Of a DNA stretch of 64,000 nt, positions 18,572 through 42,809 are shown piece by piece (within the stretch, counting starts at the first letter, position 1; the number at the start of each line of letters is the position of its first letter). A model generated the notes under the pieces. That model had not been told where the DNA came from, made no database searches, and was given only the letters and a program-made list of their open reading frames with translations. The stretch is from a candidate division WOR-3 bacterium (lineage in GTDB: Bacteria > Hydrothermota > 32-111). The translations under genes were made by a program, and so were the position numbers. The stretch is taken from contig JBDRZU010000001.1 in the NCBI GenBank assembly GCA_039804105.1, positions 1,248,001 through 1,312,000 of the forward strand. The letters are read 5' to 3'.

Positions 18572-18595
18572 GTCAAAAAGTCAAGCACCGTCCCC
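18572..18595 (+). repeat. Island repeat R1 (GTCAAAAAGTCAAGCACCGTCCCC)
   Basis: Exact 24-mer, intergenic. Confidence 0.95.
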
Positions 18596-18732
18596 AAATT
18601 TAAAAAAAATTTTATTGTAAAATTTTTTGATTATCCATTTTGCTCGATTTTTAATTATGTAGAGTTAATAATTGGTATGAAAAGAAATTTGTCAGTTGAC
18701 TCAATTGAATAGCGAGTTATAATATTTAAATT

Positions 18733-18930
18733 ATGATAAAAAACAAAGAAAAATTCTTTAAATTTGAAAAAAAATTAATTAAAAAAACAAAATATAATGT
18801 AAAAAAAAATTTTGAAATTTTTGAAACACTAAAAAGATACTATATTTTATTAGGGAGAAAACAATCGAATAAAGTAAATAGCATTGAACCAAAAATCAGA
18901 ATCGCCAGAGTATTAAATGAAAAAAAATAA
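18733..18930 (+). CDS. Small basic protein, putative antitoxin/partner of the nucleotidyltransferase
   Basis: Promoter TTGACT-16-TATAAT just upstream; overlaps the next gene. Confidence 0.6.
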   Translation: MIKNKEKFFKFEKKLIKKTKYNVKKNFEIFETLKRYYILLGRKQSNKVNSIEPKIRIARVLNEKK

Positions 18931-19474
18931 AAATCTCCTCTCCAGAATTGGAAAAGCACTCGATAAATTCGGAATAGATTATATGGTTATTGGTGGACAA
19001 GCGGTATTGTTATATGGAGAACCTCGTTTTACAAGAGATATTGATATTGTTATAGGAATTACCCCATCAAAAAAAGAAAAAATATTTGATTTGGTTAAAG
19101 AATTGAAATTAAAAATTATAGTAAAAAATCCAGAGAAGTTTATAAAAGAAACCTATGTTTTACCTTGTGAATCTTCTTTAGATGTTATGAGAGTTGATTT
19201 TATTTTTTCAGATTCCGAGTTTGAAAAGAATGCTTTAAAAAGGGTAAGAGTAAAAAAAATTGATGATTGCAAAGTAAAATTTGCTTCTATTGAAGACATT
19301 ATAATTTTAAAAATAGTTGCTGGCAGAGAAAGGGATCTTGAAGATGTTTACAACATTTTGTTAAAAAATAAAACAGTTGATTACAATTATATTTATAAAT
19401 CTTTGAAGTTTTTTGAAACTATATTAAATACAGATTTATCATCAATTTTTAAAAATATCGTCTCCCGTACTTAA
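18917..19474 (+). CDS. Nucleotidyltransferase (AbiEii/DUF6036-like)
   Basis: IGGQAV...TRDID and LKIVAGRERDLED motifs. Confidence 0.8.
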   Translation: MKKNKNLLSRIGKALDKFGIDYMVIGGQAVLLYGEPRFTRDIDIVIGITPSKKEKIFDLVKELKLKIIVKNPEKFIKETYVLPCESSLDVMRVDFIFSDSEFEKNALKRVRVKKIDDCKVKFASIEDIIILKIVAGRERDLEDVYNILLKNKTVDYNYIYKSLKFFETILNTDLSSIFKNIVSRT

Positions 19475-19568
19475 TACTCATAATTTTATATTTTCCTAAG
19501 AAATAATGAAGTATTTTTCTTTAATAAATTACATAAAAAAATTTATTTTTTTATATGTTGCAAAAAAA

Positions 19569-19591
19569 GTCAAAAAGTCAAGCACCGTCCC
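19569..19591 (+). repeat. Island repeat R2
   Basis: 23/24 match; a partial copy CAAGCACCTTTCC follows at 19603-19615. Confidence 0.95.
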
Positions 19592-19632
19592 TAAAAATTT
19601 AACAAGCACCTTTCCTGAAAATTTAAATAATC

Positions 19633-19687
19633 GGTAGGCGCAACCTTCAGGTTGCGCAAATTCTGTATGCTAAAGCCTGAGCCTACC
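19633..19687. repeat. GTAG-type REP inverted pair (REPIN-like)
   Basis: GGTAGGCGCAACCTTCAGGTTGCGC ... GCTAAAGCCTGAGCCTACC. Confidence 0.8.
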
Positions 19688-20095
19688 ATTTTTTGTTTTT
19701 TATAGATTTTTACAAACAAGAATTCAAATCTAAAAAATTTCCAAATGTCATATTCTTCTTAGTGATTATGAATTATTATTGGTTAATTTTTTTAAGAAAT
19801 AATTGTTTTGAGTGATTTTAAATAAGAGTGAAGTGAAAACTGGTGAAAAAAAGAGTTATTTTTGTTAATAATGTGAAGTTAGAAGAGGAATTGAAGAATA
19901 AAAACTAGCAATAAAATATAGAGATAAGGGTATTGACATAAAAGAAAGAAGTTGCTAATATAAATTTAAATAGTTGACATTAAATAGAAAGGGGAAATAG
20001 AAATAATAGAAGGGAAGAATTTTGGATAGTAGATATATAGAGAGAAGTGGAAAGATGGATAGAGAGAAAAAGGATAAAAATAAATGGGGGGTTAG

Positions 20096-23000
20096 ATGAA
20101 AAGAGTGGTGCTGTTTTTTGTTTTAATTTTTGTTGGAGTGATGATATTTGCAATTGAGAGTGGGAAACTGAATGGAGATTATTTGATGATGAGTGAGAGT
20201 GAAGATGAGGGCACATGGGGAGATATACCGAAGTGGGCAACAGATAGTTTGAATGTTAGGGGAATAGGAAGGGTACCATATTTTGGAGATGCTTATGATG
20301 TATTTATTGTTGACACATTTGCGTATGTTTGTATGGGGAAAAACCTTGTAATACTCAATATTTCAAACAAAACAAACCCACAACTAATAGGTTATATTGA
20401 TTTGCCTAACACAGCAAATGGTGTCTATGTCTCAGGCAGTTATGCATATGTTGTTGATTATGATTATGGCTTACGAATAATCAACATAAGTAATCCTTCA
20501 AGTCCAACAGAAGTAGGCTATTATGATACACCTGGGTATGCATATGGTGTCTATGTCTCAGGCAGTTATGCATATGTTGCTGATTATGATTATGGCTTAC
20601 GAATAATCAACATAAGTAATCCTTCAAGTCCAAAAGAAGTAGGATATTATGATACACCTGGGTATGCATATGGGGTTTATGTCTCAGGCAGTTATGCATA
20701 TGTTGCTGATGGAAGTTCTGGCTTACGAATAATTGACATAAGTAATCCTTCAAGTCCAACAGAAGTGGGCTATTATGATACACCTGGGATTGCATATGAT
20801 GTCTATGTATCAGGTAGTTATGCATATGTTGCTGATGGAAGTTCTGGCTTACGAATAATTGACATAAGTAATCCTTCAAATCCAACAGAAGTGGGATATT
20901 ATGATACAGCTGGGGGTGCATATGGGGTTTATGTCTCAGGCAGTTATGCATATGTTGCTGATGAAGATTATGGCTTACGAATAATCAACATAGGAAACCC
21001 TTCAAGTCCAACAGAAGTGGGATATTATAATACACCTGGGGATGCATGGGATGTTTATGTATCAGGCAGTTATGCATATGTTGCTGATGAAGATTATGGC
21101 TTACGAATAATCAACATAAGTAATCCTTCAAGTCCAACACAAGTAGGATATTATGATACACCTGGGTGGGCATTAGGGGTTTATGTATCAGGCAGTTATG
21201 CATATCTTGCTGATTGGGATTATGGCTTACGAATAATCAACATAAGTAACCCATCTAGTCCAACAGAAGTAGGATATTATAATACACCTGGGTATGCATG
21301 GGATGTTTATGTCTCAGGCAGTTATGCATATGTTGCTGATGAAGATTATGGCTTACGAATAATCAACATAAGTAATCCTTCAAGTCCAACAGAAGTAGGC
21401 TATTATGATACACCTGGGTGGGCATTAGGGGTTTATGTATCAGGCAGTTATGCATATGTTGCTGATGAAGATTATGGCTTACGAATAATCAACATAAGTA
21501 ATCCTTCAAGTCCAACGAGTGTAGGCTATTATGATACACCAGGGTATGCATATGATGTTTATGTCTCAGGCAGTTATGCATATGTTGCTGATGATTATGA
21601 CTTACGAATAATTGATATAAGTAACCCTTCAAGTCCAACAGAAGTAGGCTATTATGATACACCTGGGTATGCATGTGGGGTCTATGTCTCAGGCAGTTAT
21701 GCATATGTTGCTGATTATGATTATGGCTTACGAATAATCAATATAAGTAACCCAACAAGTCCAACAGAAGTAGGCTATTATGATACACCTGGGTATGCAT
21801 GTGGGGTCTATGTCTCAGGCAGTTATGCATATGTTGCTGATGAAGATTATGGCTTACGAATAATCAATATAAGTAATCCAACAAATCCAACAGAAGTAGG
21901 ATATTATAATACACCTGGGAGTGCATTAGGGGTTTATGTATCAAACAGTTATATATATCTTGCTGATGGAAATAGTGGTTTTTACATTTTACAAAATTTG
22001 TTATTAGATACAATACCTCCTTCAGCATTTAACTTAATATCTCCAAGTGGTAATATAACAGATAATACCCCGACATATACATGGAATAAGTCGTATGATA
22101 CTAATTTTAAGGAATATAGGTTATATGTTAATGGAAGTTTAAAATCAACTACAACAGATACTACATATACAGAGCCAACACCGATATCAGATGGACAGTA
22201 TATATGGTATGTAACGGCGGTTGATAGTGCAGGCAATGTAAGACAATCAAGCCAAGTTGATACATTCATACTTGATGTAACAAAACCACCAATACCAATA
22301 TTGGTAAGTCCTGGAAATAACAGCATAAGTTCCACTAACACAATCCATTTTACATGGAGGAGTGTTGTAGACAACTATAGTGGGATAAAGAGGTATGAAT
22401 TGATGTATGATGAAGATTCATTGTTTGGAAGTCCAGTGATACAGAGCGTTACAGATACGACATATACAGCAGTGTTATCAGAGGGCAGGTACTATTGGAA
22501 AGTAAGGGCAGTAGATAATTTTGATAATGTAGGGGATTGGAGTTTGAGGTGGAGTTTTGAGTATGATGGGACAGCGCCTGTGGCACCTGTTTTGATAAGT
22601 CCGAAGTGGGGCGTGGAGGTAGAGGATTCGTTAGTGTTATTTGATTGGGGGGTATTGGTAAAGGGGATAACGATAGGTATTAAGGAAAGGGAAGTGGAGA
22701 AGGAGAAGGATGGGCTAAAGGGTACGAAGGTGTATTATGAGATAGAGGTGGATACGAGCAGGAGTTTTGGTAGTGTGCTATATAGAGACACTGTGGATGT
22801 AGATAGTGTAAGAGTGAAGATAGTGAGAGATGATGTATATTATTGGAGAGTGAGGGGTTACGATGAGGCGGGGAATGTTGGTAGTTGGGGGATTGATTCA
22901 TTTGAGTTAGATATAAAGATACCAGTATTGAGTTTGAGCAAAAAGGTATATGAATTTGGAGATTTGGACACAAACAGAGTGTATAATTGGAGAGATTTAT

Positions 23001-23872
23001 ATATAAAAAATATTGGAGATGCGACATTAACAGTAGATTCAGTGAAATATAGTGATACTAAATTTTTTGCTGATACAACATACATATATCCTCTTACAAT
23101 AAATCCTGGAGATAGTGTTAGATATGGGACAAAGGCATTTTCATTGGATACAGGAGTAGTAGAAGGTAACTTGAGGGTGTATACGAGTATATACAGTGTG
23201 AAAGCGGATACAGTGATATTGAGAGCGCATTTTGGGAAGCCATTGAGGATAGATTCAGCGATAGCATTTGATGGAAGTGTATATGGAGGTGGGATAGATG
23301 AAGATGATTATGTGGTGTTATATTTTAATCAATCTACGAATGGATATAATATAAGTTCATTAAACATAGACGATGTATTGAGATTATCGAATGGACACAA
23401 ATGGACAGATGGAATTGGTATGATTGATACAGCATATTGGGATCCATCGAAAACGACATTAATGGTACAACTAAGTACAACGATAACACCACCGACTATA
23501 AGTGTAGGAGATACAATATATCCTGACTCTATGAGTATAATAGGAACGTTGAACTCATTTAGATGTCATTATCCAATGGTGATAAGAGGGTCATTTGTAT
23601 CGGGGTTAGAAGGGAAAGATATACTTGGAGTGAAGGGAGAGGAATACAAGACATATTTAGAGGTAAAACGAAATGAGATAATTTATAGTTTTAAGAATGA
23701 GGAGAATGAATTTGTGATATATGATATTTTAGGGAAGGTTATGTATAAAGAGAGATTTGTGAAGAGAGGATTACACAGATATAGTATAAAGAATATAGCA
23801 ACTGGGATATATTTTGTGAAGATGAGGGATAAAGACAAAGAGATAAACAAGAAGATAGTGATAATGAAGTGA
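20096..23872 (+). CDS. Secreted LVIVD-repeat beta-propeller protein with Ig/FN3-like domains and T9SS-like C-terminal domain
   Basis: Signal peptide; 14 ~42-aa repeats (YAYVAD..GLRIINISNP); YYWKVRAVD modules; terminal YDILGK...GIYFVK...KKIVI. Confidence 0.85.
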   Translation: MKRVVLFFVLIFVGVMIFAIESGKLNGDYLMMSESEDEGTWGDIPKWATDSLNVRGIGRVPYFGDAYDVFIVDTFAYVCMGKNLVILNISNKTNPQLIGYIDLPNTANGVYVSGSYAYVVDYDYGLRIINISNPSSPTEVGYYDTPGYAYGVYVSGSYAYVADYDYGLRIINISNPSSPKEVGYYDTPGYAYGVYVSGSYAYVADGSSGLRIIDISNPSSPTEVGYYDTPGIAYDVYVSGSYAYVADGSSGLRIIDISNPSNPTEVGYYDTAGGAYGVYVSGSYAYVADEDYGLRIINIGNPSSPTEVGYYNTPGDAWDVYVSGSYAYVADEDYGLRIINISNPSSPTQVGYYDTPGWALGVYVSGSYAYLADWDYGLRIINISNPSSPTEVGYYNTPGYAWDVYVSGSYAYVADEDYGLRIINISNPSSPTEVGYYDTPGWALGVYVSGSYAYVADEDYGLRIINISNPSSPTSVGYYDTPGYAYDVYVSGSYAYVADDYDLRIIDISNPSSPTEVGYYDTPGYACGVYVSGSYAYVADYDYGLRIINISNPTSPTEVGYYDTPGYACGVYVSGSYAYVADEDYGLRIINISNPTNPTEVGYYNTPGSALGVYVSNSYIYLADGNSGFYILQNLLLDTIPPSAFNLISPSGNITDNTPTYTWNKSYDTNFKEYRLYVNGSLKSTTTDTTYTEPTPISDGQYIWYVTAVDSAGNVRQSSQVDTFILDVTKPPIPILVSPGNNSISSTNTIHFTWRSVVDNYSGIKRYELMYDEDSLFGSPVIQSVTDTTYTAVLSEGRYYWKVRAVDNFDNVGDWSLRWSFEYDGTAPVAPVLISPKWGVEVEDSLVLFDWGVLVKGITIGIKEREVEKEKDGLKGTKVYYEIEVDTSRSFGSVLYRDTVDVDSVRVKIVRDDVYYWRVRGYDEAGNVGSWGIDSFELDIKIPVLSLSKKVYEFGDLDTNRVYNWRDLYIKNIGDATLTVDSVKYSDTKFFADTTYIYPLTINPGDSVRYGTKAFSLDTGVVEGNLRVYTSIYSVKADTVILRAHFGKPLRIDSAIAFDGSVYGGGIDEDDYVVLYFNQSTNGYNISSLNIDDVLRLSNGHKWTDGIGMIDTAYWDPSKTTLMVQLSTTITPPTISVGDTIYPDSMSIIGTLNSFRCHYPMVIRGSFVSGLEGKDILGVKGEEYKTYLEVKRNEIIYSFKNEENEFVIYDILGKVMYKERFVKRGLHRYSIKNIATGIYFVKMRDKDKEINKKIVIMK
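20411..21985 (+). repeat. Intragenic 126-bp tandem repeat (12 near-identical units plus a divergent last unit)
   Basis: Period measured directly, e.g. 20423 to 20549; one unit has a 3-bp deletion. Confidence 0.92.
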
Positions 23873-23980: not shown

Positions 23981-24004
23981 GTCAAAAAGTCAAGCACCGT
24001 CCCC
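23981..24004 (+). repeat. Island repeat R3
   Basis: Exact 24-mer. Confidence 0.95.
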
Positions 24005-24178: not shown

Positions 24179-24202
24179 GTCAAAAAGTCAAGCACCGTCC
24201 CC
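24179..24202 (+). repeat. Island repeat R4
   Basis: Exact 24-mer. Confidence 0.95.
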
Positions 24203-24245: not shown

Positions 24246-27200
24246 ATGAAAAATTTTATTACAAATAGTGGTGCGGAGAATCTCGAAAAAAGATTATCTG
24301 AACTTATCATAAGCAGTGAGGAGTTAAAGTTTCTTGTTGGGTTTTTCTATTTTTCGGGATTGAAGGAACTTTATAATTCTCTTGTGAAAAATCAAAATGT
24401 AAATTTAAAAGTTCTTGTAGGACTCAATGTTGATAAGTTGAACGAAGAGATTATTGAATTTGCTGATCTTGAAGATAGGAAGGGATCTTGTTCTGGTGAA
24501 GAAATTTACAGTAAATTTCTGGTATCTTTGAAAAAGTCTATAAATAGTGAAAAGTTTGATAACAAAGAGTTTTATGAGCAGGTGAAATTTTTTATTGAAC
24601 TTATAAAAAACGGAAATCTAAAGATCAGAAAAACAACAAAACCTAACCATTCAAAACTTTACATTTTTAAACTCAACAATTTACAGGTCGGAAGAAAAAC
24701 TCTGTTTATTACTGGAAGCAGTAATCTGACAGGTTCTGGACTTTTAACACAGGAAGAGTTCAACATCGAAGTTTCTGATTATGGTTTCAAAGAGGCAGAA
24801 AAATACTTTGATGATTTATGGGATAAAGCGATTCCAATAACTGAAAATACTGTTAATAAAAATAGAATGTTAAAAATTCTTGAAAAAGAAACTTTTATAA
24901 AAGAGATAACACCTTTTGAAGCGTATCTTCTGGTTTTAAAATTCTATCTTGATTCATTTGAAATGAAGAATATTGGAAAATCTCTTGTTAGAATTATGGA
25001 AAAAAATAATTATACACCATACAAGTATCAACTTGATGCTATACAACAGGCAATTTCAATAATTGAAAAAAATAATGGTGTGATTCTTGCCGATGTTGTT
25101 GGTCTTGGAAAAAGTGTCATAGCATCTTTAATAGCAAGAGAACTCAACAAAAGGGGAGTTATAATCTGTCCACCTGCTCTTATGGGTGATAGTCGTTTGA
25201 AAAACACTGGCTGGTATATGTATAGGGAACAATTTGAACTATACGATTGGGATGTCTGGTCTATTGGAGATATTGAAAAACTTGAAAAATTTCTAAAAAA
25301 TAAACAGGATATAGAGGTTGTGATAATTGACGAAGCACACAGGTTTCGAAATCAGGATACGAAAGGATATGAGTGTTTAAAAAATATTTGCAGAGGGAGA
25401 AATGTTATACTTTTAACTGCAACTCCTTTCAACAACAGACCTGAAGACATTTTATCACTTTTAAAACTTTTTGTTATTCCCAAAAAATCATCGATTACAC
25501 TTGAAAACAATCTTGTTGAAAGATTCAGAAAATTCAAAAGTGTTTTTGAGGATCTTGCTTTGATAAAGAAAAATTATAAATCAACAGATAATAAAAAAAG
25601 AAAGAAAGCACTTGATACCTATAAATCACTTTTCGGGAAAGAGTTTTCAGGTGAAGAATCATTAAAAGATGTTAAAAAGCGTGCTCAATACCTTTCAAAA
25701 CAGATTAGAGATGTTATTGAACCAGTTGTGATAAGAAGGAATAGGTTGGATTTACAAAATAATCCATTATATAAAGATGAGATAAAACACCTTTCAAAAG
25801 TTGCTGATCCACAGGAATGGTTTTATGAGTTAACAAAAGAACAATCTGAATTTTACGATTCAATAGTTGAACATTATTTTGCTGATCCTGATGATGGTGG
25901 AGAGTTTAAAGGAGCGATATATAGACCTTTTGAATACGAAAAGGGAAAAGCAACAATAAAAGAACTCGAAAAGTTGTCTGATAAAGAAAATTTTGAATAT
26001 AACCAGCAAAAGAACCTGTGTGATTTTATGAGAAGATTGCTTGTTAAAAGGTTTGAAAGTTCGTTTGGTTCATTTGAACAGAGTTTGAAAAATTTTAAAG
26101 AGACAACCGAGACAGTTAAAAGTTTTATTGATAAAACTGGAAAATATATTCTTGATAGGGATTTGCTTGAACGGATTTATGAGATGGATATAGAAGATAT
26201 AGAGGAGAGATTGAAAGAGTATGCTGAAACTATGAAAAGAAAGAATTATCCAAAATATTATAAGGTCTATGATATTAACAAGTTTCAAGATAAAGAAAAA
26301 TTTCTTGCAGATATAGATAACGATTTAAAAATCTTTGATGAGATACTTTCAAAACTGAAAAAGTTGAAACTTACAGAAAACTTTGATCCCAAAACGAAAT
26401 GCCTCATCGAAAATTTAAAAAAACAGTTAAAAAAAGATGAAAAAAGAAAAATTGTAATTTTCTCAGAATATGTTGATACAGTAAAATATTTGCAACCAGC
26501 ACTTGAAAAAGTTTTTAAAGGAAGAGTTCTTTCTGTTCCGGGATTGTTGAATCAGACAAAGGAACATGAAATTTACGCAAACTTTGATGCATCGTTTGAA
26601 AAACAGAAAGATGATTATGATATTTTGTTAACATCTGATAAACTTTCTGAGGGGTTTAATCTCAATAGAGCAGGAATGATTATCAACTATGATATACCAT
26701 GGAATCCTGTGAGAGTTATTCAAAGGGTTGGAAGAATCAATCGTATAAGTAAAAAAGTGTTTGATGAACTTTATATCGTGAACTTCTTTCCAACAGAAAC
26801 TGGAGCAGACATTGTTAAATCAAGAGAGATCGCATCACATAAAATGTTTTTGATACACAACACCCTTGGAGAGGACTCAAAGATTTTTGATATTGATGAA
26901 ACACCTCAACCGTCAAAACTTTATGATAAGATAAATCAGAATCCTGAAAATATTGAACACGAAAGTTTTTATACAAAAGTTTTAAAAGAATTTTCTGAAA
27001 TCAAAAACAAATATCCTGAACTTCTTGAATCATTAAAAGATTTTCCAACAAGAGTCAAAGTTGCGAAAAAAGCGAAAGAGGATGAATTGATAGTTGTGAT
27101 AAAAAAGGGAAGATTGTTTATAAATTCAATCAAAGATTTTGAAAATCCTGAACAGATGACTTTTGAAGAGGCATTTGAAAAGATCAAGTGTTCTCCAAAT

Positions 27201-33971: not shown

Positions 33972-34394
33972 ATGAATTTTATTAATTTAATTAAAATTCA
34001 AAAAAATAACATAGAAATCATTTTACCCCTTGTTTTTGAAAAAAATAAAATTGAATTAAAAGAGAAATTCCAATCTATCTTGGAAACAGAGAATTTTAAT
34101 GTTTTTTGGATTAAAGAAATATTTAAAAACTACAGGGAATTAAAAGTTTTTTTAGAAGAAAAAAATTACAACTTTAAAACAGAAATAAGTATAAATTTTA
34201 AGAAAACAGAGTTTAAAAATAGAACTTATTTTGTAACAATATACAGGACAAGTTTGGTAGGTTTTTCTTCTTTTAATTTTGAAGGGTTTTTGTTAAATGT
34301 TGGAGAAAATTATGATATTGTTAAATGGCTTATAAAATGTAATAAACCTTTCAAAAGAAGGAGGGAGCAAAATGGTTTTTTCCAAAAGATGTAA
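33972..34394 (+). CDS. Hypothetical protein
   Basis: ORF preceded by TTGACA-16-TAAATT 7 nt before ATG. Confidence 0.55.
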   Translation: MNFINLIKIQKNNIEIILPLVFEKNKIELKEKFQSILETENFNVFWIKEIFKNYRELKVFLEEKNYNFKTEISINFKKTEFKNRTYFVTIYRTSLVGFSSFNFEGFLLNVGENYDIVKWLIKCNKPFKRRREQNGFFQKM

Positions 34395-35229
34395 AAATTT
34401 AATTGGTTTAAGAAACCTGGAATTAGAATTTAATGAAACAATCAGGAATAGAATTTATAAGCTAATGGAAAAATTTAATTTAAGTCTAGAAAGAGTTACA
34501 GAAAGTAATTATAATTATGTAATTTATTGTTTTGATGAATTAGTTGAAAATATTAAATACACTTATGGTATTATTGAAAATAATATTGATATAAAAAATA
34601 TCATACATGATTCATCGACTTACTATCTATTTGATATAGTTGAATTATTTTATAATGTTTTAAAAGAGAAAAATGAAGAAAATAATTTTGAGAAAAGGTT
34701 TAATGAAATAATGAAAGAAGAAAAACTTCCATGGATAATGTCAGAGGGAGAAATAATTCAGATATCTTCTATATATCATCAAGAAGTAATCCTGAAACCT
34801 TTAATTTCTTTGTTAAACAAAAGTAAATTTAAAGGTGCAGAAGAGGAACTTATAGAATCATTAAAATTTTTGACAGGAGGAGAATATAAAGAAGCAATAA
34901 ACAATGCCTGGAAAGCAACAGAAAGTATTATTAAGTGTATTACAAAAACCCCAGAAGCAAAACCTGGAGAACTTATTGAAAAAATTAGTAAAATGGATTT
35001 TATTCCAATTGAGTTACAAAAATCGATAGATGACTTTATTTCTGGAGTTTCTTGTTTAAGAAGTTTTAGTGGTTCAGTTCATGGACAGGGAGAGAAAAAT
35101 ATTGATATACCTCAAAATTTTGCAGAATTAGTTATTAATGTAAACGCTACTCTAATGTTATATTTGATAAAAAGTTATAATGATAAAAAAGAAGAAAAAG
35201 AAAAAATAAAAGAAGATATTACTTTTTGA
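34372..35229 (+). CDS. AbiJ-like protein with Abi_C/HEPN C-terminal domain
   Basis: EAINNAWKATESIIK...LRSFSGSVHGQG...FAELVIN HEPN-like pattern; SD GGAGG. Confidence 0.7.
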   Translation: MVFSKRCKNLIGLRNLELEFNETIRNRIYKLMEKFNLSLERVTESNYNYVIYCFDELVENIKYTYGIIENNIDIKNIIHDSSTYYLFDIVELFYNVLKEKNEENNFEKRFNEIMKEEKLPWIMSEGEIIQISSIYHQEVILKPLISLLNKSKFKGAEEELIESLKFLTGGEYKEAINNAWKATESIIKCITKTPEAKPGELIEKISKMDFIPIELQKSIDDFISGVSCLRSFSGSVHGQGEKNIDIPQNFAELVINVNATLMLYLIKSYNDKKEEKEKIKEDITF

Positions 35230-35245
35230 TAAAAGGGGGGATAAG

Positions 35246-35806
35246 TTGAAGGCAAAAGTCAAAAAATTTTTCGTTTTTTTTGTTGTTTCATTTATTTTAA
35301 TTATTTTTTTTATTGTTTCTATAATTAATTTTCGTTTTTTTATTAAACATCTTCAGATTATAAAAGATTTTCTAACAGTGCTTCAACTATTAACAATAAT
35401 TATAATTTCAATTTTTTCTGCCTGGTGGACATATAAAACTTTTGGTGAAAAAGAAAGAAGAGAAGAGATAAGAAAAATCAAAAAAACAATCATGGATTCT
35501 CTTATAAGAGTAGTGAATTATATTGAAACTACTAAATTAGTCGAGAAAAAAAATAAAGATTTACCGGGCTTTCCCTTTAAATGTAGAATGGAACTAAGAA
35601 ATTTAATAGTTCCAATTTTTATTGAATTAGAGACATTGGTTTATTTTGATAAAAATAAAAAAGAAAAATTGAAAAATGAACTTTTTACAATTGCTTCTTA
35701 TGAAAATGTTAAAGATTATATAATTGATGAAAGAAAAGATGTTAAACTTGAAGAGAATAATCCCATAGTCCAAAAATTTGAAGAATGGATTAGATTAATA
35801 AATTAG
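35246..35806 (+). CDS. Hypothetical protein with two N-terminal TMs
   Basis: TTG start after GGGGG SD; hydrophobic N-terminus. Confidence 0.6.
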   Translation: MKAKVKKFFVFFVVSFILIIFFIVSIINFRFFIKHLQIIKDFLTVLQLLTIIIISIFSAWWTYKTFGEKERREEIRKIKKTIMDSLIRVVNYIETTKLVEKKNKDLPGFPFKCRMELRNLIVPIFIELETLVYFDKNKKEKLKNELFTIASYENVKDYIIDERKDVKLEENNPIVQKFEEWIRLIN

Positions 35807-35832: not shown

Positions 35833-35856
35833 GGGGACGGTGCTTGACTTTTTGAC
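35833..35856 (-). repeat. Island repeat R6
   Basis: Exact 24-mer (reverse complement). Confidence 0.95.
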
Positions 35857-35901
35857 ATTTTTATAATACTATCGATAAAACAATAACTTAAAGGAGGGGT
35901 G

Positions 35902-37122
35902 ATGGAGAAAAATTTTATCGTTTGTCCCAAATGTAAAACAGAGATTGATGTTAATGAAGTTTTGTATTCACAGATTGAGGAGAGTTTAAAAAAAGATTTT
36001 GAAGCAAGATTAAAAGAGAAAGAAGAAAAGTTGAAAAAAGAATTTGAAAATCTCCAGAAAGCACAAGAAGATTTTGAAAAAAAGATAAAAGAAAAGGTGG
36101 AAGAAAAATTAATTGCTGAAAAAAAGGAACTTGAAAAGAAAATAAAAAAGGACTATGAGGTTGAATATTCTTCACAGATTGAAGAGTTTAAAAAAACACT
36201 TGAAGAAAAATCAAATCAAGTAAAAGAGTTGAATAAAACGAAAGCGGAGATAGAAAGGTTAAAGAGAGAAAAAGAGGAGTTAAGAGATCAAATAATACTT
36301 GAAAAAGAAAAAGAATTGAATGAGAAATTGAGAGCAGAAAGAGAAAGAATAAGAAAAACTATTGAAGAAGATATTTATATGAAAATGAAAGAAAAAGATA
36401 AACTTATTGAGGATTTAAAAAAAGAAATAGAAAATGCAAAAAGAAAAGCGGAACAGGGCTCAGTGCAAATTCAAGGAGAGGTTCAGGAACTTGAAATAGA
36501 AAAAATTTTGAAAGAAAATTTTCCAGATGACAAAATTGAGCCAATTGAGAAAGGGAAAAGTGGAGCAGATGTGTTGCAAATAATAATTGAGAAAGGAAGG
36601 CAAATTGGAAAGATATATTATGAAAGTAAAAGAACAAAAACTTTTGGTAAAGATTGGATAAAAAAACTAAAAGAAGATAATCTTGAAAAGAAAGCAGATC
36701 TTCTTGTGTTGGTTACAGATGCATTTCCTGATGGGCATAAGAATTTCTTCAACATGGAAGGTGTCTGGGTATGTTCGCTTGAAGAGTTAAAACCGCTTGC
36801 GATGATTTTAAGGCATATGCTGGTTCAAATCAATTTACAGAAGAATATTCAAAGCAATCGAAAAGAAAAAGCAGAAATTTTGTATGATTATATAACAAGC
36901 AATGAGTTTAAAAATCAATTTGAAGCAATTGTGAACGGTTTTGTTGAACTAAAAAAAGGGTATGATGATGAAAAATTGAAAATGCAAAAAATCTGGAAAG
37001 AAAGAGAGAAACAACTTGAAATGATACTTTCAAATGCTGCTGGTTTATATGGATCTTTTAAAGGTTATCTTGGCGGTTCAATGAAAGAGATAAAGTTATT
37101 GGAAAGTGAAGAGAAAAAATAA
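35902..37122 (+). CDS. DUF2130 family protein (coiled coil plus PD-(D/E)XK-like nuclease)
   Basis: CPKC, coiled coil, QGEVQELEIE, GADVLQ, YESKRTK. Confidence 0.85.
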   Translation: MEKNFIVCPKCKTEIDVNEVLYSQIEESLKKDFEARLKEKEEKLKKEFENLQKAQEDFEKKIKEKVEEKLIAEKKELEKKIKKDYEVEYSSQIEEFKKTLEEKSNQVKELNKTKAEIERLKREKEELRDQIILEKEKELNEKLRAERERIRKTIEEDIYMKMKEKDKLIEDLKKEIENAKRKAEQGSVQIQGEVQELEIEKILKENFPDDKIEPIEKGKSGADVLQIIIEKGRQIGKIYYESKRTKTFGKDWIKKLKEDNLEKKADLLVLVTDAFPDGHKNFFNMEGVWVCSLEELKPLAMILRHMLVQINLQKNIQSNRKEKAEILYDYITSNEFKNQFEAIVNGFVELKKGYDDEKLKMQKIWKEREKQLEMILSNAAGLYGSFKGYLGGSMKEIKLLESEEKK

Positions 37123-37154: not shown

Positions 37155-37178
37155 GGGGACGGTGCTTGACTTTTTGAC
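37155..37178 (-). repeat. Island repeat R7
   Basis: Exact 24-mer (reverse complement). Confidence 0.95.
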
Positions 37179-37233: not shown

Positions 37234-38361
37234 TTATACTGCCAAACTTGAAAGGTACTCTCCTGCTGGAATAATTTTTATTCCATCTTTTTTTAATTCA
37301 TATTTTAGATTATGAACGAGTTGAATATATTCTAATTGAGGAAACAACTTTTTAAAATATAATAAATTTTTATCAGGATTATCATCTGAAAGTTTTACTT
37401 CAACCATTTGAATAATTTTGTTGTTTTCAGTTATTACAAAATCAATTTCTTTTTTTTCTTTTGTCCTTATGTAATGAAGTTGAAGATCTTTGCCTTCTGA
37501 GTCCTGTAAAAATTGGCAATGTTTCAAAAGTGAAACAGCAACAGTGTTTTCAAGTTTTAAACCATCATCTTTGTCAATAAAACCGGAGTCAAAAAAATAA
37601 ACTTTTGGTTCTTTTAAAATTGAACGAGAAATATTTTTATGAAAAGGTCTTATTAGGAAAATTATATTCAATGCTTCAAGAATAAAAATGTATTTTTTGA
37701 CTGTGTTTACAGAAATCTGTAAATCCTGAGCAAGAGATGAATAAGAAATTGGGGAACCAACTCTATCTTTGAGTAAATACAAAAGAGTTTTAATCGATCT
37801 TATTTCGAGAATTTTTGCAAAATCAAGGACATCTGTAGTTATTATATCTGAATAATATTCTTTTCTCCATCTTTGAGATTCTGTTTCTGAGTCAGAAAGA
37901 AAAGGTTCAGGAAAACCACCAAATTTGTTTAATTTTTCTACAGCATCATAAGGTTTTAAAATATGTTGAAGTTCTTTTACTGAAAATGGAAAAAGATGAT
38001 ATAAATAATATCTTCCTGCGAGTGAATCACCTGTGTGTTTAAAGATGTCAAGTTTTGCACTACCAGTTATTAAAAGTTTCTGTTTTTTTTCTTTTGTATC
38101 ATAGACACCTTTTAGATAGTTTTTCCACTTTTCAAGTTTTTGAATTTCATCTAAAACGACGAGTTGAGTATCAAGTGTCCATTCCTTGTTTAGAATAGTT
38201 CTTTTATCTTTTATATCGTCAAAATTTAAATAAATGCTCTTTTGGAAATTTTTTAAAATCTCCTTTGAAAGATAAGTTTTTCCAACTTGACGTGGTCCAG
38301 TTAAAATGACCATCTTTTTATTCAAATCTTTTAAAATAAATCGTTGCAAATACCTTTCCAT
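37234..38361 (-). CDS. AAA+ ATPase with DUF4143 C-terminal domain (copy 1)
   Basis: GPRQVGKT, LDEIQ, TGSA, GGFPE, KVYFFDSG, EIDF...EVK; start set at MERY by comparison with copy 2. Confidence 0.9.
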   Translation of the reverse strand: MERYLQRFILKDLNKKMVILTGPRQVGKTYLSKEILKNFQKSIYLNFDDIKDKRTILNKEWTLDTQLVVLDEIQKLEKWKNYLKGVYDTKEKKQKLLITGSAKLDIFKHTGDSLAGRYYLYHLFPFSVKELQHILKPYDAVEKLNKFGGFPEPFLSDSETESQRWRKEYYSDIITTDVLDFAKILEIRSIKTLLYLLKDRVGSPISYSSLAQDLQISVNTVKKYIFILEALNIIFLIRPFHKNISRSILKEPKVYFFDSGFIDKDDGLKLENTVAVSLLKHCQFLQDSEGKDLQLHYIRTKEKKEIDFVITENNKIIQMVEVKLSDDNPDKNLLYFKKLFPQLEYIQLVHNLKYELKKDGIKIIPAGEYLSSLAV

Positions 38362-38464
38362 ATTAACTAATATAGAATACTTTGCAAAAAAGTCAAGATT
38401 ATTTTGCAAAGAACTGCAAAAAAGTCAAGATTATAAATTGTTTATAAATAAAAAATTTTATTTC

Positions 38465-38488
38465 GGGGACGGTGCTTGACTTTTTGAC
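38465..38488 (-). repeat. Island repeat R8
   Basis: Exact 24-mer (reverse complement). Confidence 0.95.
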
Positions 38489-38592: not shown

Positions 38593-38636
38593 ATTGTGGA
38601 TGACAAATATTTAAAAGTTTTCTAAACCTGTAGATA

Positions 38637-41066
38637 TTATTTTATCACAAAAACTTTTTTGTTTATCTTAGTATCTCCATCTTTTAGTTTAACAAAATAA
38701 ATACCTGATGGAAGTTGATCGAACTTATAATAATGTGTCCCTATTTTTTTATTTTTCTCTTTATATATTTGGTTGCCCATCAGGTCGTATATTTCGAACT
38801 CATTTTCAAAATTTGATACAGAATAGCAAATACCTTTCAAATCAATCTCTAATTTTTTTACTTTTTGATCACGATTTTTTATATCGTTTATACTCCATGT
38901 GTTTATTGTAAATGTATCAATTTGGTTTGATGTTGTAACATTATCGAAACTATCAACTGCTTCAACATACCAGAAATATATACCATCTGGTAATGGAATA
39001 GGTTCGGTATATGTAGTATCTGTCGTAGTTGCAATTAAATTATCATAAGAATATACTCGATATTCTTTAAAGTGAGCATCGGTTGATTTATGCCAGATAT
39101 ATGTTGGAGTGTTATCGGTAATTTCTCCTGATGGAGATATGAGATCAAATTTGGTTGGTGGAACAAAATCTGAACTTAATATATAAAACCCAGTAGTTCC
39201 ATTTGCAAGATAAATATAATCGTTGTTTACAAAAACTTCGTAACATTCTCCATAGGTGTTATAATAACCTACTTCTTTTGGAAAATATGGATTTGAGACA
39301 TCTATGACTCTGACTCCATAATCAAAATCAGCAACATAAGCGTAATTGCCTTCAACATAAACACTATGAGCTATTCCATCTGTATCATAATATCCAACCT
39401 CAACCGGATTTGCTGGATCCGTTACATTTATTATTCTTAAGCCACTGTAAAAATCAGCAACATAAGCATAGTTACCTGAAACATAGACACCATAAGCACC
39501 ACCTGGTGTATCATAATAACCGACTTCAACAGGGCTTGATGGATTTGATATATCTATAATTCTTAACCCATTTAAAAAACCAGCAAGATAAGCATGGTTG
39601 CCTGAAACATAAACATCGTAAGTCCACCCAGGAGGAACAATTGAACCAACCTGTGTAGGATTTGAAGGATTTGAGATATTAATTATTCTAAGTCCATAAG
39701 AACCATCAGCAAGATATAAATAATTTCCATCTACAAAAAGTTTCGAAGCATAAACAGAAGACTGGAAAGATCCGACCTCTACTGGATTAATAGGATTTGT
39801 GATATTTATTACTCTTAAACCTTTATAGTTATCAGCTACATAGGCATAATTGCTAAAAATATGTACACCTGTTGCATAACCTGGAGTATCACAGTTTCCA
39901 AGTTTTACAGGGTTTGAAGGGTTTGAGATATCAATTATCTGTAGACCATCATCACCACTTGCAATGTATGCATAATTTCCACTTATATATAAACCCTCTG
40001 CGATTCCTGTGCTAATAAAATTTGATATTTCGACAGGATTTGAAATGTTTGAAACATCAATTATTTTCAATCCAGAACTTCCATCTGCAAGGTAAACATA
40101 ATTGTTTAAAACAAAAATTCCCTGAGATTCTCCAGAAGTGTTATATGAACTTGTTAATCCTGGTGATGCGGGATTTGAAACATTGATTATTTTTAGTCCA
40201 TTTGTGTCATCTGCAAGATAGGCGTAATTACCAATAACATAGACATCCATAGCATTAAAACTGCTAAAAACACCAGATTCAACTGGTGTTGTGGGATCAA
40301 CTATATTGATTATTCTAAGACCTCCATTTTTATCTGCAATGTATGCATAATTTCCAGAGACATACACTCCATTAGCATCACCAGGTGTATTATAAGAACC
40401 GATTATATATGGGGAAATGGGGTTAGTTATATTAATAATTTTTAATCCTTCGGTTCCAGATGCAACATAAGCATAATTACCCGAAACATAAAGTGCTCTT
40501 GCAATACCAGGAATAATACATGAACCTTTTTCCTGTGGATTTGAAGGATTTGAAACATCTAATATATGTAAACCTGTTAAACTGTCAAGAATATAAGTAT
40601 AACTTGCAACAACAAAAACTGTCCGGATATCGTTTAAAGAATATGTGGTTATTAACGATGGTTTTTTTGGATCTGAAACATCAACAATTTTTAAGCCGTT
40701 TGTTCCATTTGCAACATAAGCATAATTACCTGAAACAAAAATGTCTATTGCTGATGTAGAAAAATCTATATAACCTGTCAATTCTGGATTTGCTTTGTTG
40801 GATATGTTCAATATCACAAGATTATTTCCCATACCTGCATAAGCAAAAGTATCAACAACAAAAACATCATAAGTTTCTCCAAAATATGGTATCCTTCCAA
40901 CTCCTCTGATATTCAAACTATCAGAAGCCCAAAAAGGTGAATAGTCCCATAATGTTCTTTGTTGTTTTTCTGTAGTTGTGTTGAACTCTTGAAAAGGTAT
41001 TTTAATTTTGGAAAACAGGTTCAGTCCAAGGAAAAGAATTATAACAAACAAAAAGAATCTTTTCAT
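38637..41066 (-). CDS. Secreted LVIVD-repeat beta-propeller protein with T9SS-like C-terminal domain (paralog of 20096..23872)
   Basis: Signal peptide; shared WAxDSLN.RG.GR.PYFG cap; 14 diverged repeats; ISPSG.ITDNTPTY domain; GIYFVK tail. Confidence 0.85.
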   Translation of the reverse strand: MKRFFLFVIILFLGLNLFSKIKIPFQEFNTTTEKQQRTLWDYSPFWASDSLNIRGVGRIPYFGETYDVFVVDTFAYAGMGNNLVILNISNKANPELTGYIDFSTSAIDIFVSGNYAYVANGTNGLKIVDVSDPKKPSLITTYSLNDIRTVFVVASYTYILDSLTGLHILDVSNPSNPQEKGSCIIPGIARALYVSGNYAYVASGTEGLKIINITNPISPYIIGSYNTPGDANGVYVSGNYAYIADKNGGLRIINIVDPTTPVESGVFSSFNAMDVYVIGNYAYLADDTNGLKIINVSNPASPGLTSSYNTSGESQGIFVLNNYVYLADGSSGLKIIDVSNISNPVEISNFISTGIAEGLYISGNYAYIASGDDGLQIIDISNPSNPVKLGNCDTPGYATGVHIFSNYAYVADNYKGLRVINITNPINPVEVGSFQSSVYASKLFVDGNYLYLADGSYGLRIINISNPSNPTQVGSIVPPGWTYDVYVSGNHAYLAGFLNGLRIIDISNPSSPVEVGYYDTPGGAYGVYVSGNYAYVADFYSGLRIINVTDPANPVEVGYYDTDGIAHSVYVEGNYAYVADFDYGVRVIDVSNPYFPKEVGYYNTYGECYEVFVNNDYIYLANGTTGFYILSSDFVPPTKFDLISPSGEITDNTPTYIWHKSTDAHFKEYRVYSYDNLIATTTDTTYTEPIPLPDGIYFWYVEAVDSFDNVTTSNQIDTFTINTWSINDIKNRDQKVKKLEIDLKGICYSVSNFENEFEIYDLMGNQIYKEKNKKIGTHYYKFDQLPSGIYFVKLKDGDTKINKKVFVIK

Positions 41067-41172: not shown

Positions 41173-41196
41173 GGGGACGGTGCTTGACTTTTTGAC
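41173..41196 (-). repeat. Island repeat R9
   Basis: Exact 24-mer (reverse complement). Confidence 0.95.
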
Positions 41197-41211
41197 ATTT
41201 TTTAAGTATAT

Positions 41212-41485
41212 CGCACCCTAAAGGGTGCGGCTACAAAAAAACAAAAAACAAAAAATTCATGGTAGCCTCAGGCTTCAGTCTGAGAGAAGAAACATAAAAC
41301 ATATAGCGCAACCTAAAGGTTGCGGCTACCATGCGAGGGATTTTGAAATGGTAGCATCAGGCTTTAGCCCGAGTGGAATTTTCGCAACCTAAAGGTTGCG
41401 GCTACCAAAAAAAATAAACAAAATAAATGTGGTAGGCGCGGGTTTCAGATTGCGGGATATCGTGCACCCTGAAGGGGGCGGCTAC
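41212..41485. repeat. Cluster of 7 GTAG-type REP palindromes in alternating orientation (BIME/REPIN-like)
   Basis: Units at 41212, 41261, 41307, 41350, 41383, 41431 and 41461, e.g. CGCAACCTAAAGGTTGCGGCTACC. Confidence 0.85.
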
Positions 41486-41502
41486 AGATAGTTTATATCT
41501 TT

Positions 41503-41521
41503 GGGGACTGTGCTTGACTTT
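41503..41521 (-). repeat. Island repeat R10 (degenerate)
   Basis: GGGGACTGTGCTTGACTTT: one mismatch and a truncated tail. Confidence 0.8.
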
Positions 41522-41577
41522 GTTGGATAATGAAAAATTTTCATACAAAGACAAAAAGAAGAAAAACGAAAAAATGA

Positions 41578-42705
41578 TTATACTGCCAAATTTGAAAGGT
41601 ATTCTCCTGCGGGAATAATTTTTATTCCGTCTTTTTTTAACTCATATTTTAAATTGTGAACGATTTGAATATATTCCAATTGTGGGAAAAACTTTTTAAA
41701 ATATAATAAATTTTTATCGGGATTTTCATCTGAAAGTTTTACTTCAACCATCTGAATAATTTTGTTATTTTCAGTTATAACAAAATCAATTTCTTTTTTT
41801 TCTTTTGTTCTTATGTAATGAAGTTGAACATCTTTGCCTTCTGAGTCCTGTAAAAATTGGCAATGTTTCAAAAGTGAAACAGCAACAGTGTTTTCAAGTT
41901 TTAAACCATTATCTTTGTCAATAAAACCGGAGTCAAAAAAATAAACTTTTGGTTCTTTTAAAATTGAACGAGAAATATTTTTATGAAAAGGTCTTATTAA
42001 AAAAATTATATTCAATGCTTCAAGAATAAAAATGTATTTCTTTACTGTGTTTACAGAAATCTGTAAATCCTGAGCGAGAGATGAATAAGAGATTGGGGAA
42101 CCAACTCTGTCTTTGAGTAAATATAAAAGAGTTTTAATCGATCTTATTTCGAGAATTTTTGCAAAATCAAGAACATCTATAGTTATTATATCTGAATAGT
42201 ACTCTTTTCTCCATCTTTGAGCTTCAGTTTCTGAATCAGAAAGAAATGGCTCAGGGAAACCACCGAATTTATTTAATTTTTCTACAGCATCGTAAGGTTT
42301 TAGAATATGTTGAAGTTCTTTTACTGAAAAGGGAAAAAGATGATAGTAAAAATACCTTCCAGCAAGAGAATCTCCTGTCTGTTTGAAAATATCAAGTTTT
42401 GCACTGCCTGTTATTAAAAACTTTTGATTTTTCTCTTTTGTATCATATACGCCTTTTAAAAAAGTTTTCCATTTTTTAAGTTTCTGAATTTCATCTAAAA
42501 CGATGAGTTCAGTATCAAGTGTCCATTCTTTATTTAGAATAATGTTTTTATCTTTAGTATCATCAAAATTCAAATAAATACTCTTTTGAAAGTTTTTAAA
42601 AATCTCCTTTGCAAGATAAGTTTTCCCAACCTGTCTTGGTCCAGTTAAAATAACCATCTTTTTACTTAAATCTTTTAAGATAAATTTTTGTAAATACCTT
42701 TCCAT
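41578..42705 (-). CDS. AAA+ ATPase with DUF4143 C-terminal domain (copy 2)
   Basis: Near-identical to 37234..38361 and the same 375-aa length. Confidence 0.9.
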   Translation of the reverse strand: MERYLQKFILKDLSKKMVILTGPRQVGKTYLAKEIFKNFQKSIYLNFDDTKDKNIILNKEWTLDTELIVLDEIQKLKKWKTFLKGVYDTKEKNQKFLITGSAKLDIFKQTGDSLAGRYFYYHLFPFSVKELQHILKPYDAVEKLNKFGGFPEPFLSDSETEAQRWRKEYYSDIITIDVLDFAKILEIRSIKTLLYLLKDRVGSPISYSSLAQDLQISVNTVKKYIFILEALNIIFLIRPFHKNISRSILKEPKVYFFDSGFIDKDNGLKLENTVAVSLLKHCQFLQDSEGKDVQLHYIRTKEKKEIDFVITENNKIIQMVEVKLSDENPDKNLLYFKKFFPQLEYIQIVHNLKYELKKDGIKIIPAGEYLSNLAV

Positions 42706-42785
42706 ATTGACTAATATATACTATATTGCAAAAAAGTCAAGATTTTTTTGCAAAATATTGCAAAAAAGTTAAAATCATTATATCT

Positions 42786-42809
42786 GGGGACGGTGCTTGA
42801 CTTTTTGAC
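42786..42809 (-). repeat. Island repeat R11
   Basis: Exact 24-mer (reverse complement). Confidence 0.95.

Follow-up and report, generated by a model that had tools for sequence, protein, structure and literature searches.

Di Nocera, De Gregorio and Rocco (2013; PMC3733652) described RAYT-like genes that carry long terminal inverted repeats (TIRs) in place of repetitive extragenic palindromes (REPs), and named these units TIRtrons and their enzymes TIRYTs. In the available parts of that report a GGGGWSAS box is noted in many TIRs, and 'moderately abundant families of TIRs' are said to occur as singles, dimers or groups. According to the available parts of Quentin et al. (2018; PMC6006769), TnpA-Y1 subclass 2.1 'probably corresponds' to TIRtron/TIRYT, with a median length of 238 aa, an NH[YF]H (or NHVH) motif, a Y---NP tyrosine motif and a helix-turn-helix (HTH)-like C-terminal extension (Bac_DnaA_C, HTH_23, HTH_28); those same parts of the two papers assign TIRYTs no function. 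Here we examine a repeat that punctuates a 24.2-kb array of defence and surface-protein genes in a candidate division WOR-3 bacterium, within a 64,000-nt stretch of DNA referred to below as the window (assembly GCA_039804105.1, contig JBDRZU010000001.1, positions 1,248,001 to 1,312,000, forward strand). This 24-mer is very probably the core of a ~32-nt TIR belonging to a TIRtron with a single-copy RAYT-like Y1/HUH gene, a TIRYT.

The 24-mer, GTCAAAAAGTCAAGCACCGTCCCC, is found ten times in the window when up to three mismatches are allowed, with eight copies exact and two bearing one mismatch (a final T); four copies are on the plus strand (18572, 19569, 23981, 24179) and six on the minus strand (33709, 35833, 37155, 38465, 41173, 42786). 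An eleventh, degenerate copy (41503-41526, minus) has five mismatches overall, one of them within the last 16 bases. The eleven thus run as four on the plus strand and then seven on the minus strand, all of them intergenic and with their CCCC ends directed to the island center. An earlier note on this DNA, made from the letters alone, had drawn the same picture, apart from placing one copy at 33710, and its statement that the flanks hold no further copy stands at up to three mismatches throughout the 64 kb; 100 dinucleotide-preserving shuffles of the window gave no match (chance expectation 0). Alignment of all genomic copies extends the conserved unit to ~32 nt, AAAAAT + 24-mer + R-A, with sharp edges and unrelated flanks. 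The note was also right that the repeat is neither palindromic nor CRISPR-like: the 24-mer lacks self-complementarity, five copies folded as DNA showed no hairpin (z-scores -1.7 to +0.8 against shuffled controls), no Rfam family was matched at E up to 0.1 over window positions 18000-43500, and the spacings of 0.17-9.5 kb are occupied by genes. As it had also stated, no recombinase or transposase is found among the 45 window proteins scanned. Gene calls throughout are simple longest-open reading frame (ORF) calls made for this analysis.

The genome under study (G000) consists of two contigs, C1 and C2, totaling 1.81 Mb at 85% completeness, and PF01797 (Y1_Tnp) has a single match in all of it, a 305-aa ORF (C1:1070308-1071225; 3.5e-12) that lies 178 kb upstream of the window. 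The repeat brackets it with two inverted copies, at 1070314(-) and 1071277(+), 963 nt apart and with their GGGG/CCCC ends outward; the last 11 codons of the gene are the TIR itself. The earlier note had offered a Y1 HUH enzyme related to RAYTs, acting in trans, as one candidate catalyst: the enzyme exists and is bracketed by this very repeat, while its catalytic role is something that we infer. The protein scores 59.7 bits against NCBIfam REP_Tyr_transpos (cut-off 80) versus 23.2 bits against IS200 (cut-off 55). It bears an NHFH motif at residues 58-61 and YTLLNP at 118-123, and N58, H59, H61, Y118 and N122 are invariant across 14 homologues. A PDB sequence search with the protein found no match; an AlphaFold model (14 homologues, pLDDT 85.9) has as its best structural match the E. 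coli RAYT in complex with its REP, 4er8_A (E = 6e-7, TM 0.69 on target), the next closest being the IS608 and ISDra2 TnpA structures. Its C-terminal domain (residues ~224-301) is helical, conserved and confidently modeled.

These features agree with the published TIRtrons: a single-copy RAYT-like Y1/HUH gene of ~300 aa with NH[YF]H and Y---NP motifs, non-hairpin flanking TIRs that start with GGGG, one of which overlaps the gene 3' end, and a dispersed TIR family (singles, dimers, groups) with patchy spread across phyla. The 'new site type' of the earlier note is therefore a kind of repeat described in 2013 (PMC3733652). There are also differences: most copies here are singlets rather than dimers, and they lie at joints of variable defence and surface modules with CCCC toward the variable DNA, which the available parts of PMC3733652 and PMC6006769 do not report. 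REPIN-RAYT systems (Bertels and Rainey 2011, PMC3116915; Nunvar 2010, PMC2817692), as far as the available parts of those reports describe them, share the domesticated single-copy Y1 transposase bracketed by its own short dispersed intergenic repeat; a repeat family for each paralogue, doublets and a predicted fold nearest the E. coli RAYT are further likenesses. The TIR, however, is not a 20-40 nt palindrome and has no GT[AG]G head. Moreover, the available text of PMC3390384 has Pseudomonas REPs marking old, stable DNA and avoiding strain-specific regions, which are 'REP deserts'; the preference of the TIRs for variable DNA is the reverse of this classical pattern.

The genomes compared here, including the four congeners of G000 (G001-G004), are all of metagenome-assembled genome (MAG) grade and are inter-related. 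Orthologues of the TIRYT gene in G002, G003 and G001 (in the last split over two small contigs) are bracketed likewise, in each case by that genome's own TIR variant. Genome-wide, the first eight TIR bases are GTCAAAAA in both G000 and G001, as against GTCACACT in G002 and G003. G004, a congener that is 99% complete, has no match to the TIRYT protein and no repeat family, giving one 3-mismatch hit only; the TIRtron is absent at the syntenic spot, where exact borders could not be placed because the intergenic DNA has diverged too far. In a set of 59 relatives, a Y1 match is present in every one of the 12 genomes that have two or more TIR matches (12/12), and the 21 without a Y1 match have no TIR match, except for that one hit in G004; these are kin genomes, so that the co-occurrence does not amount to a formal statistical test. 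We also note that the last 16 TIR bases are identical across genomes at shared intergenic sites (e.g. C1:1190955 versus G002:C17:14064 and G003:C7:112180), and that the change in the first eight is concerted, in step with a TIRYT identity of 65-66%. Conversion by the enzyme and repeated re-insertion are two possibilities for this concerted change.

Flanking inverted repeats of their own, 12-31 nt long, are carried by 20 of the 22 paralogue loci that were long enough for testing. Many of these repeats have a common two-part build: the end reads GGGGACGG or GGGGTCAG, and next to it come two tandem 5-7-mers, which co-vary (TTGAC/TTGAC, TTGGA/TTGGA, TGTAAAC/TGTAAAC and TTCTCA/TTCTCA were seen). 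The TIR of G000 combines the terminal box GGGGACGG with TTGAC-N3-TTGAC, while the TIRs of several paralogues in relatives start GGGGTCAG, an exact fit to GGGGWSAS. Because the tandem 5-7-mers change along with the protein paralogue, they look like the specificity determinant. One such variant is dispersed in two relatives, G006 (21 copies) and G009 (15 copies), where most of the copies form doublets whose starts are 85-88 nt apart.

The element reaches well beyond the genus. A scan of one genome per species for GTCANNNNGTCAAGCACCGTCCCC gave at least 78 stretches (~310 estimated), and the labels among the matches listed, all MAGs, are Aminicenantes, TA06, Stahlbacteria, Cloacimonadota, Elusimicrobia, Wallbacteria, Thermodesulfovibrionales, Chrysiogenales, Brevinematales and one Thermoplasmatota. 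At 11 of the 78 matches listed, the 400-nt flank encodes a TIRYT homologue (N-terminal stretches ~50-58% identical, shorter pieces 38% to 73%), and enzyme and end sequence therefore travel together across phyla. A TIR pattern with 20 specified bases had no match in 2.9 million viral contigs. One Aminicenantes MAG (G060; 3.1 Mb, ~50% GC in the fetched stretches) has 20 copies, including a two-armed array of five strict-pattern plus copies and then two minus copies around Mrr, methylase, ResIII, DUF2130 and AAA_13 genes; three Y1 genes lie inside the arrays of this genome.

Within G000 the repeat has 40 copies, 32 of them exact over 24 nt, and a reversed control pattern has no match. Thirty of the 40 lie outside the window island, so that with the same 24-mer in several phyla the locus is not the dedicated platform that the earlier note had supposed. 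The island is nevertheless the densest array, with ten copies inside its 24.2-kb span versus 0.54 expected (Poisson P = 3e-10). Only three of the 40 copies fall wholly within ORFs, though ORFs by this simple calling span 93% of the genome. The congeners G001, G002 and G003 have 35, 24 and 24 copies. Apart from the pair at the TIRYT gene, the other 38 copies are mostly singlets, and in this genus they probably lie mainly at the joints of strain-variable defence and surface-protein modules.

The features of the island are, in window coordinates:

18572..18595 (+): TIR copy, exact; left island border, with the core flank on its AAAAAT side; left flank kept in G002, G003 and G004 up to ~18444-18469
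18733..19474 (+): 65-aa ORF and DUF6036/DUF2204/AbiEii-like nucleotidyltransferase (domain scan), between the first two TIRs; likely a toxin-antitoxin-type pair
19569..19592 (+): TIR copy, one mismatch (...CCCT)
19603-19616: partial second TIR copy, CAAGCACCTTTCCT, after TIR 19569
near 19639-19688: GTAG-type hairpin repeats, after TIR 19569
20096..23872 (+): gene for a 1258-aa LVIVD / Por_Secre_tail surface protein, between TIRs 19569 and 23981
23981..24004 (+): TIR copy, exact; 3' of the preceding LVIVD gene
24179..24202 (+): TIR copy, exact; the ATG of the HKD-Snf2 helicase gene is 43 nt downstream
24246..32518 (+): central block of HKD-Snf2 helicase (24246-27602), type IIG restriction-modification (R-M) enzyme (27697-31176), KwaA (31161-31670) and KwaB (31667-32518)
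32696..33595 (-): 299-aa gene without family match; final gene ahead of the first minus-strand TIR
33709..33732 (-): TIR copy, one mismatch
33972..35806 (+): three-gene module with AbiJ_NTD4/Abi_C protein (PADLOC PDC-S32), in the direction opposite to its bounding TIRs
35833..35856 (-): TIR copy, exact
35899..37122 (+): DUF2130 gene module
37155..37178 (-): TIR copy, exact
37234..38409 (-): DUF4143/AAA_14 ATPase (PADLOC PDC-S01), copy a
38465..38488 (-): TIR copy, exact
38637..41066 (-): LVIVD / Por_Secre_tail surface protein gene
41173..41196 (-): TIR copy, exact
41212-41234, 41307-41329 and 41383-41405 (-): three GTAG-headed hairpin repeats (canonical REP shape), between two TIR copies
41503..41526 (-): degenerate TIR copy, five mismatches (one in the last 16 nt)
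41578..42705 (-): DUF4143/AAA_14 ATPase (PDC-S01), copy b, paralogous to copy a; unit duplicated from TIR to TIR
42786..42809 (-): TIR copy, exact; right island border, where G001 homology (91%) stops

Domain and PADLOC scans thus recover the modules that the earlier note had named: the nucleotidyltransferase, two LVIVD genes, two DUF4143 ATPases, DUF2130, Abi_C and the helicase/R-M/Kiwa block. Both LVIVD proteins are type-IX-secreted. As side features, the LVIVD genes are, at 20350-22032 and 39187-40751, long runs of 126-nt (42-codon) tandem repeats, and these two runs are ~70-75% complementary to each other across the arms, thereby making the longest 'inverted repeats' of the window.

The left flank (window 12802-18469) and the right flank (from ~42883) of this island are conserved in G002, G003 and G004, and what lies between them is hypervariable. 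In G004 the island is absent, the flanks being 58 nt apart; it measures 6.5 kb in G003, 10.8 kb in G002 and 24 kb in G000. The cargo of both G002 and G003 is enclosed by one plus and one minus copy facing inward, and that of G002 is a complete type I-B CRISPR-Cas locus, with the array end 33 nt from a TIR. In G001 the right flank is 91% identical up to TIR 42786, after which come nine plus copies with modules in another order. The DUF4143 copy a unit (37234..38409, TIR to TIR) is 90.6% identical in G001 with both neighbors different, and part of the AbiJ_NTD4/Abi_C module (33972..35806) is present there at a different array position. Two G001 genes are truncated close to repeats: a DUF2130 remnant consists of the first 258 nt, joined ~10 nt past the CCCC end of another TIR, and of the LVIVD gene (38637..41066) the 3' end only is left, again joined ~10 nt past the CCCC end of another TIR. 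On sequence, the two truncations look like adjacent deletions by a transposase end rather than homologous exchange. In the G003 island an IS110-family transposase gene (Transposase_20, DEDD_Tnp_IS110; L181:832-1734) lies between the conserved left flank and the first TIR; IS110 relatives target REPs, and by analogy this gene may have inserted next to the TIR.

Similar breakpoints occur at other copies. (i) C1:1175534(+)/1183544(-) are inward-facing TIRs that enclose 8.2 kb with HsdR, HsdS, a Fic protein and HsdM, a type I R-M + Fic island. It is missing in G002-G004, with a terminator hairpin in its place, and G001 has the same flanks and both TIRs around different cargo, the sequences diverging 2-4 nt after CCCC on each side. 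(ii) At C1:709648, G000 reads U-TIR-D versus U-TIR-5.5 kb-TIR-D in G002, where U and D are the two flanks, with the homology switch exactly at the repeats. (iii) An LVIVD gene and one TIR lie between the direct copies 261183 and 263692 in G000; G001 has a single copy there. (iv) A CstA gene ending in the TIR at 1055930 is not present in G002-G004. (v) A 7.7-kb segment ending at 1236875(-) is missing from the G004 site and is found partly elsewhere in G001 and G002. (vi) Synteny with all four congeners stops ~145 nt before 470786(+). The earlier note's view that the repeats border self-contained strain-variable modules is thus upheld by gain, loss and replacement breakpoints among congeners. 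It had listed genome-wide scatter, a match to a known IS end, and identical content among relatives as findings that would speak against it: the first two are, formally, what we find, and the third is not, because breakpoints do fall at the repeats.

Of the 28 copies (out of 40) examined in this way, the clustered ones, 22 border on or fall within a segment that a congener lacks or has replaced, and at eight of the nine single-TIR borders between conserved and variable DNA the CCCC end is toward the variable side, both tallies being post hoc, from chosen clustered copies, and without a formal null. The remaining six of the 28 are the two that flank the TIRYT gene and four plain singlets. At C1:493298-499324, 6 kb comprising two convergent ~740-aa genes with a TIR between them are 98.2-98.5% identical among G000, G002 (L209) and G003 (L210), against 75-88% elsewhere. 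The TIR of this stretch keeps the G000-type first eight bases in G002 and G003, unlike their own TIRs, and the similarity pattern points to recent exchange between lineages.

It is quite possible, judging from the end-products visible in genome comparisons, that TIRYT catalyzes exchanges at TIRs. Y1 enzymes nick and rejoin single strands at IS608 and REP ends; in like manner TIRYT would bind the tandem half-sites of the TIR, nick single-stranded DNA at or just past the ...CCGTCCCC end, and rejoin the nicked end to another nicked TIR. Between direct copies, a [cargo + TIR] unit would be excised or inserted; at a border TIR, the DNA on the CCCC side would be exchanged. Arrays would grow inward from a TIR anchored on each core flank, and two inward-facing arms would therefore result. 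A cleavage point fixed at 10 nt past CCCC is suggested by the two G001 truncations and is unsupported by the cargo-replacement junctions, where only 5-7 of the 10 bases are shared. Stated more broadly and more tentatively, TIRYT and its TIRs might form an HUH-driven, single-strand counterpart of integrons, in which a lone Y1 enzyme nicks CCCC ends, joins TIRs and moves [cargo + TIR] units, reshuffling defence islands (CRISPR-Cas, R-M, Kiwa, Abi, PDC-S01) and surface loci at many sites and in several phyla.

A number of observations weigh against the identification or the proposed exchanges. With respect to identity, GGGGACGG matches seven of the eight positions of GGGGWSAS (G, not A, at position 7), and a Pfam search of the C-terminal domain in the 14 homologues, at E up to 0.05, detected an HTH family in none of them; for the latter reason a DNA-binding role of this domain is only proposed. 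With respect to exchange, the CCCC end, the 'outer' end, faces inward around cargo, the reverse of its orientation in the TIRtron itself and awkward for a transposon; the border at C1:1067687 is an exception to the polarity; and, set against the empty sites, the islands do not end at the TIRs but 80-140 nt farther out. The post hoc nature of the two tallies belongs here as well, as do the four plain singlets (C1:1190955, 279483, 280700, 496165), which are accompanied by no change in gene content; that at C1:1190955 is kept in G001-G003 and is simply missing in G004 at the same intergenic site. Indels between direct TIRs could also be produced by homologous recombination between 32-nt identical repeats, and whole-island swaps are possible through the long homologous core flanks. 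Finally, a full-text literature search found no published TIRYT biochemistry.

The main rival reading is a passive role for the repeats, which is a real possibility. The TIR family of TIRYT would then be selfish or neutral passengers in the long, tolerant, AT-rich intergenic DNA of recent islands, with swaps due to homologous recombination in core flanks, indels due to RecA-type recombination between the 32-nt repeats, and TIRYT merely spreading or maintaining them. The plain singlets and the positions of the island edges are as expected for passengers, every direct-repeat indel fits as a product of homologous recombination, and the 6-kb stretch, 98% identical in three genomes and with a donor-type TIR, makes lineage exchange evident. 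REPs, too, have long been proposed as homologous recombination sites, according to the available text of PMC3390384, though the same text places Pseudomonas REPs in stable DNA, as described above. What passive repeats leave unexplained is the CCCC polarity at eight of nine borders, the two gene truncations ~10 nt from a TIR end, and the replacement of cargo 2-4 nt after CCCC on both sides of the same inverted TIR pair. The last weighs against recombination because inverted repeats yield inversions, not replacement. In addition, 32 nt is short for efficient RecA exchange.

That the repeat is instead a regulatory element is improbable. It would be a transcription or RNA signal carried with accessory genes (an operator, promoter, anti-termination site or 5'-leader), and inverted copies at operon ends could pair in mRNA. 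The tandem half-sites do resemble a protein-binding site; on the CCCC side, 26 of the 40 copies are followed by a co-oriented ORF, some just 21-60 nt away, and eight of the 11 window copies point to the next gene; and in the G002, G003 and type I R-M islands a co-oriented copy precedes the first gene, while an inverted one follows the last. However, the other 14 of the 40 run into the 3' end of an opposed, convergent gene, often 6-33 nt from its stop, and hence the copies are not plain promoters; four copies even provide the last codons and the stop of the convergent ORF. The next start codon is anywhere from 21 to >1200 nt away, the identity of 32 of the 40 copies over 24 nt is far beyond the needs of an operator, the 24-mer recurs in several phyla with a TIRYT gene, and the searches above gave neither an Rfam match nor a hairpin. 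Promoter readings fail on orientation or spacing upon manual inspection: the GGGG strand loosely fits the sigma-54 consensus TGGCAC-N5-TTGC, but a gene starts on that side in 20 of 40 only and the -12 C is missing, while for an ECF-type promoter the GTCAA to CGTC spacing of 12 nt is too short.

An integron- or shufflon-like array, its tyrosine or serine recombinase encoded elsewhere and its repeats acting as one-armed sites of the kind exemplified by shufflon sfx, would suit the cassette-array layout and the single conserved site arm with its sharp edge, but is hardly credible when none of the 45 scanned window proteins is a recombinase, the two PF00589 matches in G000 (304 and 309 aa; C1:656 kb and C1:1328.5 kb) each keep >37 kb away from the nearest TIR, the site does not form a palindrome of the attC type, and the only gene consistently bracketed by the TIR in four genomes of the genus, and adjacent to it in other phyla, is the Y1/HUH gene.

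Other candidates were rejected. A tracrRNA or stray CRISPR repeat was considered, as the TIR shares AAATGT...GTCAAGC...CCCC with the type II-C repeat, but a proper anti-repeat adjoins cas9 at C2:415306, and in G001 and G002 a TIR is found at the end of a type I-B array that is unrelated; the TIR is thus no CRISPR part, and the adjacency of TIR and array stands as an observation. A Ter-like replication terminator does not suit an orientation that alternates in short runs on the contig with no replichore-scale switch. Against a classical MITE (a miniature transposable element with inverted repeats) with target-site duplication, there are 12 tail-to-tail pairs in other phyla whose inner spacers are unrelated (total length 73-160 nt) and which show no direct duplications. 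A tRNA/tmRNA fragment or att site was entertained for one copy beside a tRNA gene, but the repeat does not derive from a tRNA. This copy, at C1:1147956 of G000 and on G001 contig C12 (L048), lies 24-30 nt past the 3' CCA of a tRNA gene of class II (with a long variable arm), a classic spot for island insertion.

CALINs are integrase-less attC arrays, and the present arrays resemble these and integrons in their mostly one-gene or one-operon units that each end in one site, in the presence, absence and re-ordering of units between strains, in their defence and toxin-antitoxin cargo, and in a catalyst not beside the array. What the earlier note called integron-like thus holds for the cassette-array layout; there is, on the other hand, no IntI, attI or attC-type folded palindrome, the sites are chromosome-wide in both orientations, and instead of a tyrosine recombinase the candidate is an HUH nuclease that works on a single strand. 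With IS200/IS605 (IS608, ISDra2) and IS91/ISCR elements the system would share, by analogy, HUH chemistry on single-stranded DNA with a cut at a fixed offset from the recognized end. ISCR-type elements mobilize DNA beyond one particular end, and one-ended mobilization of this sort would give the one-sided polarity seen here. Unlike IS200/IS605, our element has TIRs and has no subterminal hairpins, no tnpB and no multiple identical gene copies; ISCR enzymes are Y2 Rep-like, not Y1, and there is no sign of rolling-circle copying here. CRISPR arrays differ in that the spacings here are 0.17-9.5 kb and gene-filled, and the real type II-C array of G000 has a different 36-nt repeat.

The TIRtron identity by itself is modest news: one more TIRtron, in uncultured low-GC bacteria. 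It is the layout that matters: whole defence systems (type I-B CRISPR-Cas, type I and IIG R-M, Kiwa, Abi-like, PDC-S01) distinguish close relatives, and TIRs sit at the joints concerned as well as beside secreted surface-protein genes. The element is of a known kind, and its role as a cassette joint is possibly new. For the gain and exchange of systems by defence islands in which no mobile-element genes are recognizable, TIRYT, if it is the enzyme, would offer a concrete route; the HUH-driven reading, if true, would give the TIRYT class a first function and defence-island turnover a concrete mechanism. If TIRYT is not the enzyme, the TIRs are still useful landmarks of cassette borders in these genomes.

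We close with some peculiarities of individual copies and assemblies: (i) One 288-nt TIR doublet is present at C1:1386957/1387221 (to 1387244), and each contig ends in a repeat of one of its arms, C2 over the final 125 nt and C1 over the final 121 nt. Because both contig ends repeat one doublet arm, a second copy of the doublet probably joins C1 and C2 and caused the assembly break. (ii) Twelve G001 contigs of 542-1010 nt, among C4-C20 (L042-L053), contain one TIR each, mostly near the middle; collinearity with G000 continues through the TIR in eight of them and breaks off there in four. The G001 assembly appears to be fragmented around TIRs, possibly since strains in the sample differ beyond them. 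(iii) A type II-C-like CRISPR-Cas9 locus (C2:415306-422116) encodes cas9 (1038 aa), cas1 and cas2 and has 34 repeats of 36 nt; its anti-repeat is immediately upstream of cas9, at C2:415306, and the array end is 14 nt from a TIR copy. (iv) GTAG-headed hairpin repeats of canonical shape, some as inverted pairs, were seen only beside TIR copies (window 41212-41405 and 19639-19688; G001 L182:495-580 and 1993-2178). These true hairpins do not flank the Y1 gene, and the PF01797 search of the G000 genome found no second Y1 gene to serve them; similar hairpins lie within TIR doublets of a MAG from another lineage (L064, L071). (v) In the Aminicenantes genome G060 (L211-L214), a second repeat family, AAAACATATAAACA[AC]GC.CCGTCCC, occupies the same arrays and has its CAAGCACCGTCCC end in common with the main TIR; DUF2130 genes are found in TIR-bounded islands of both this genome and the window.

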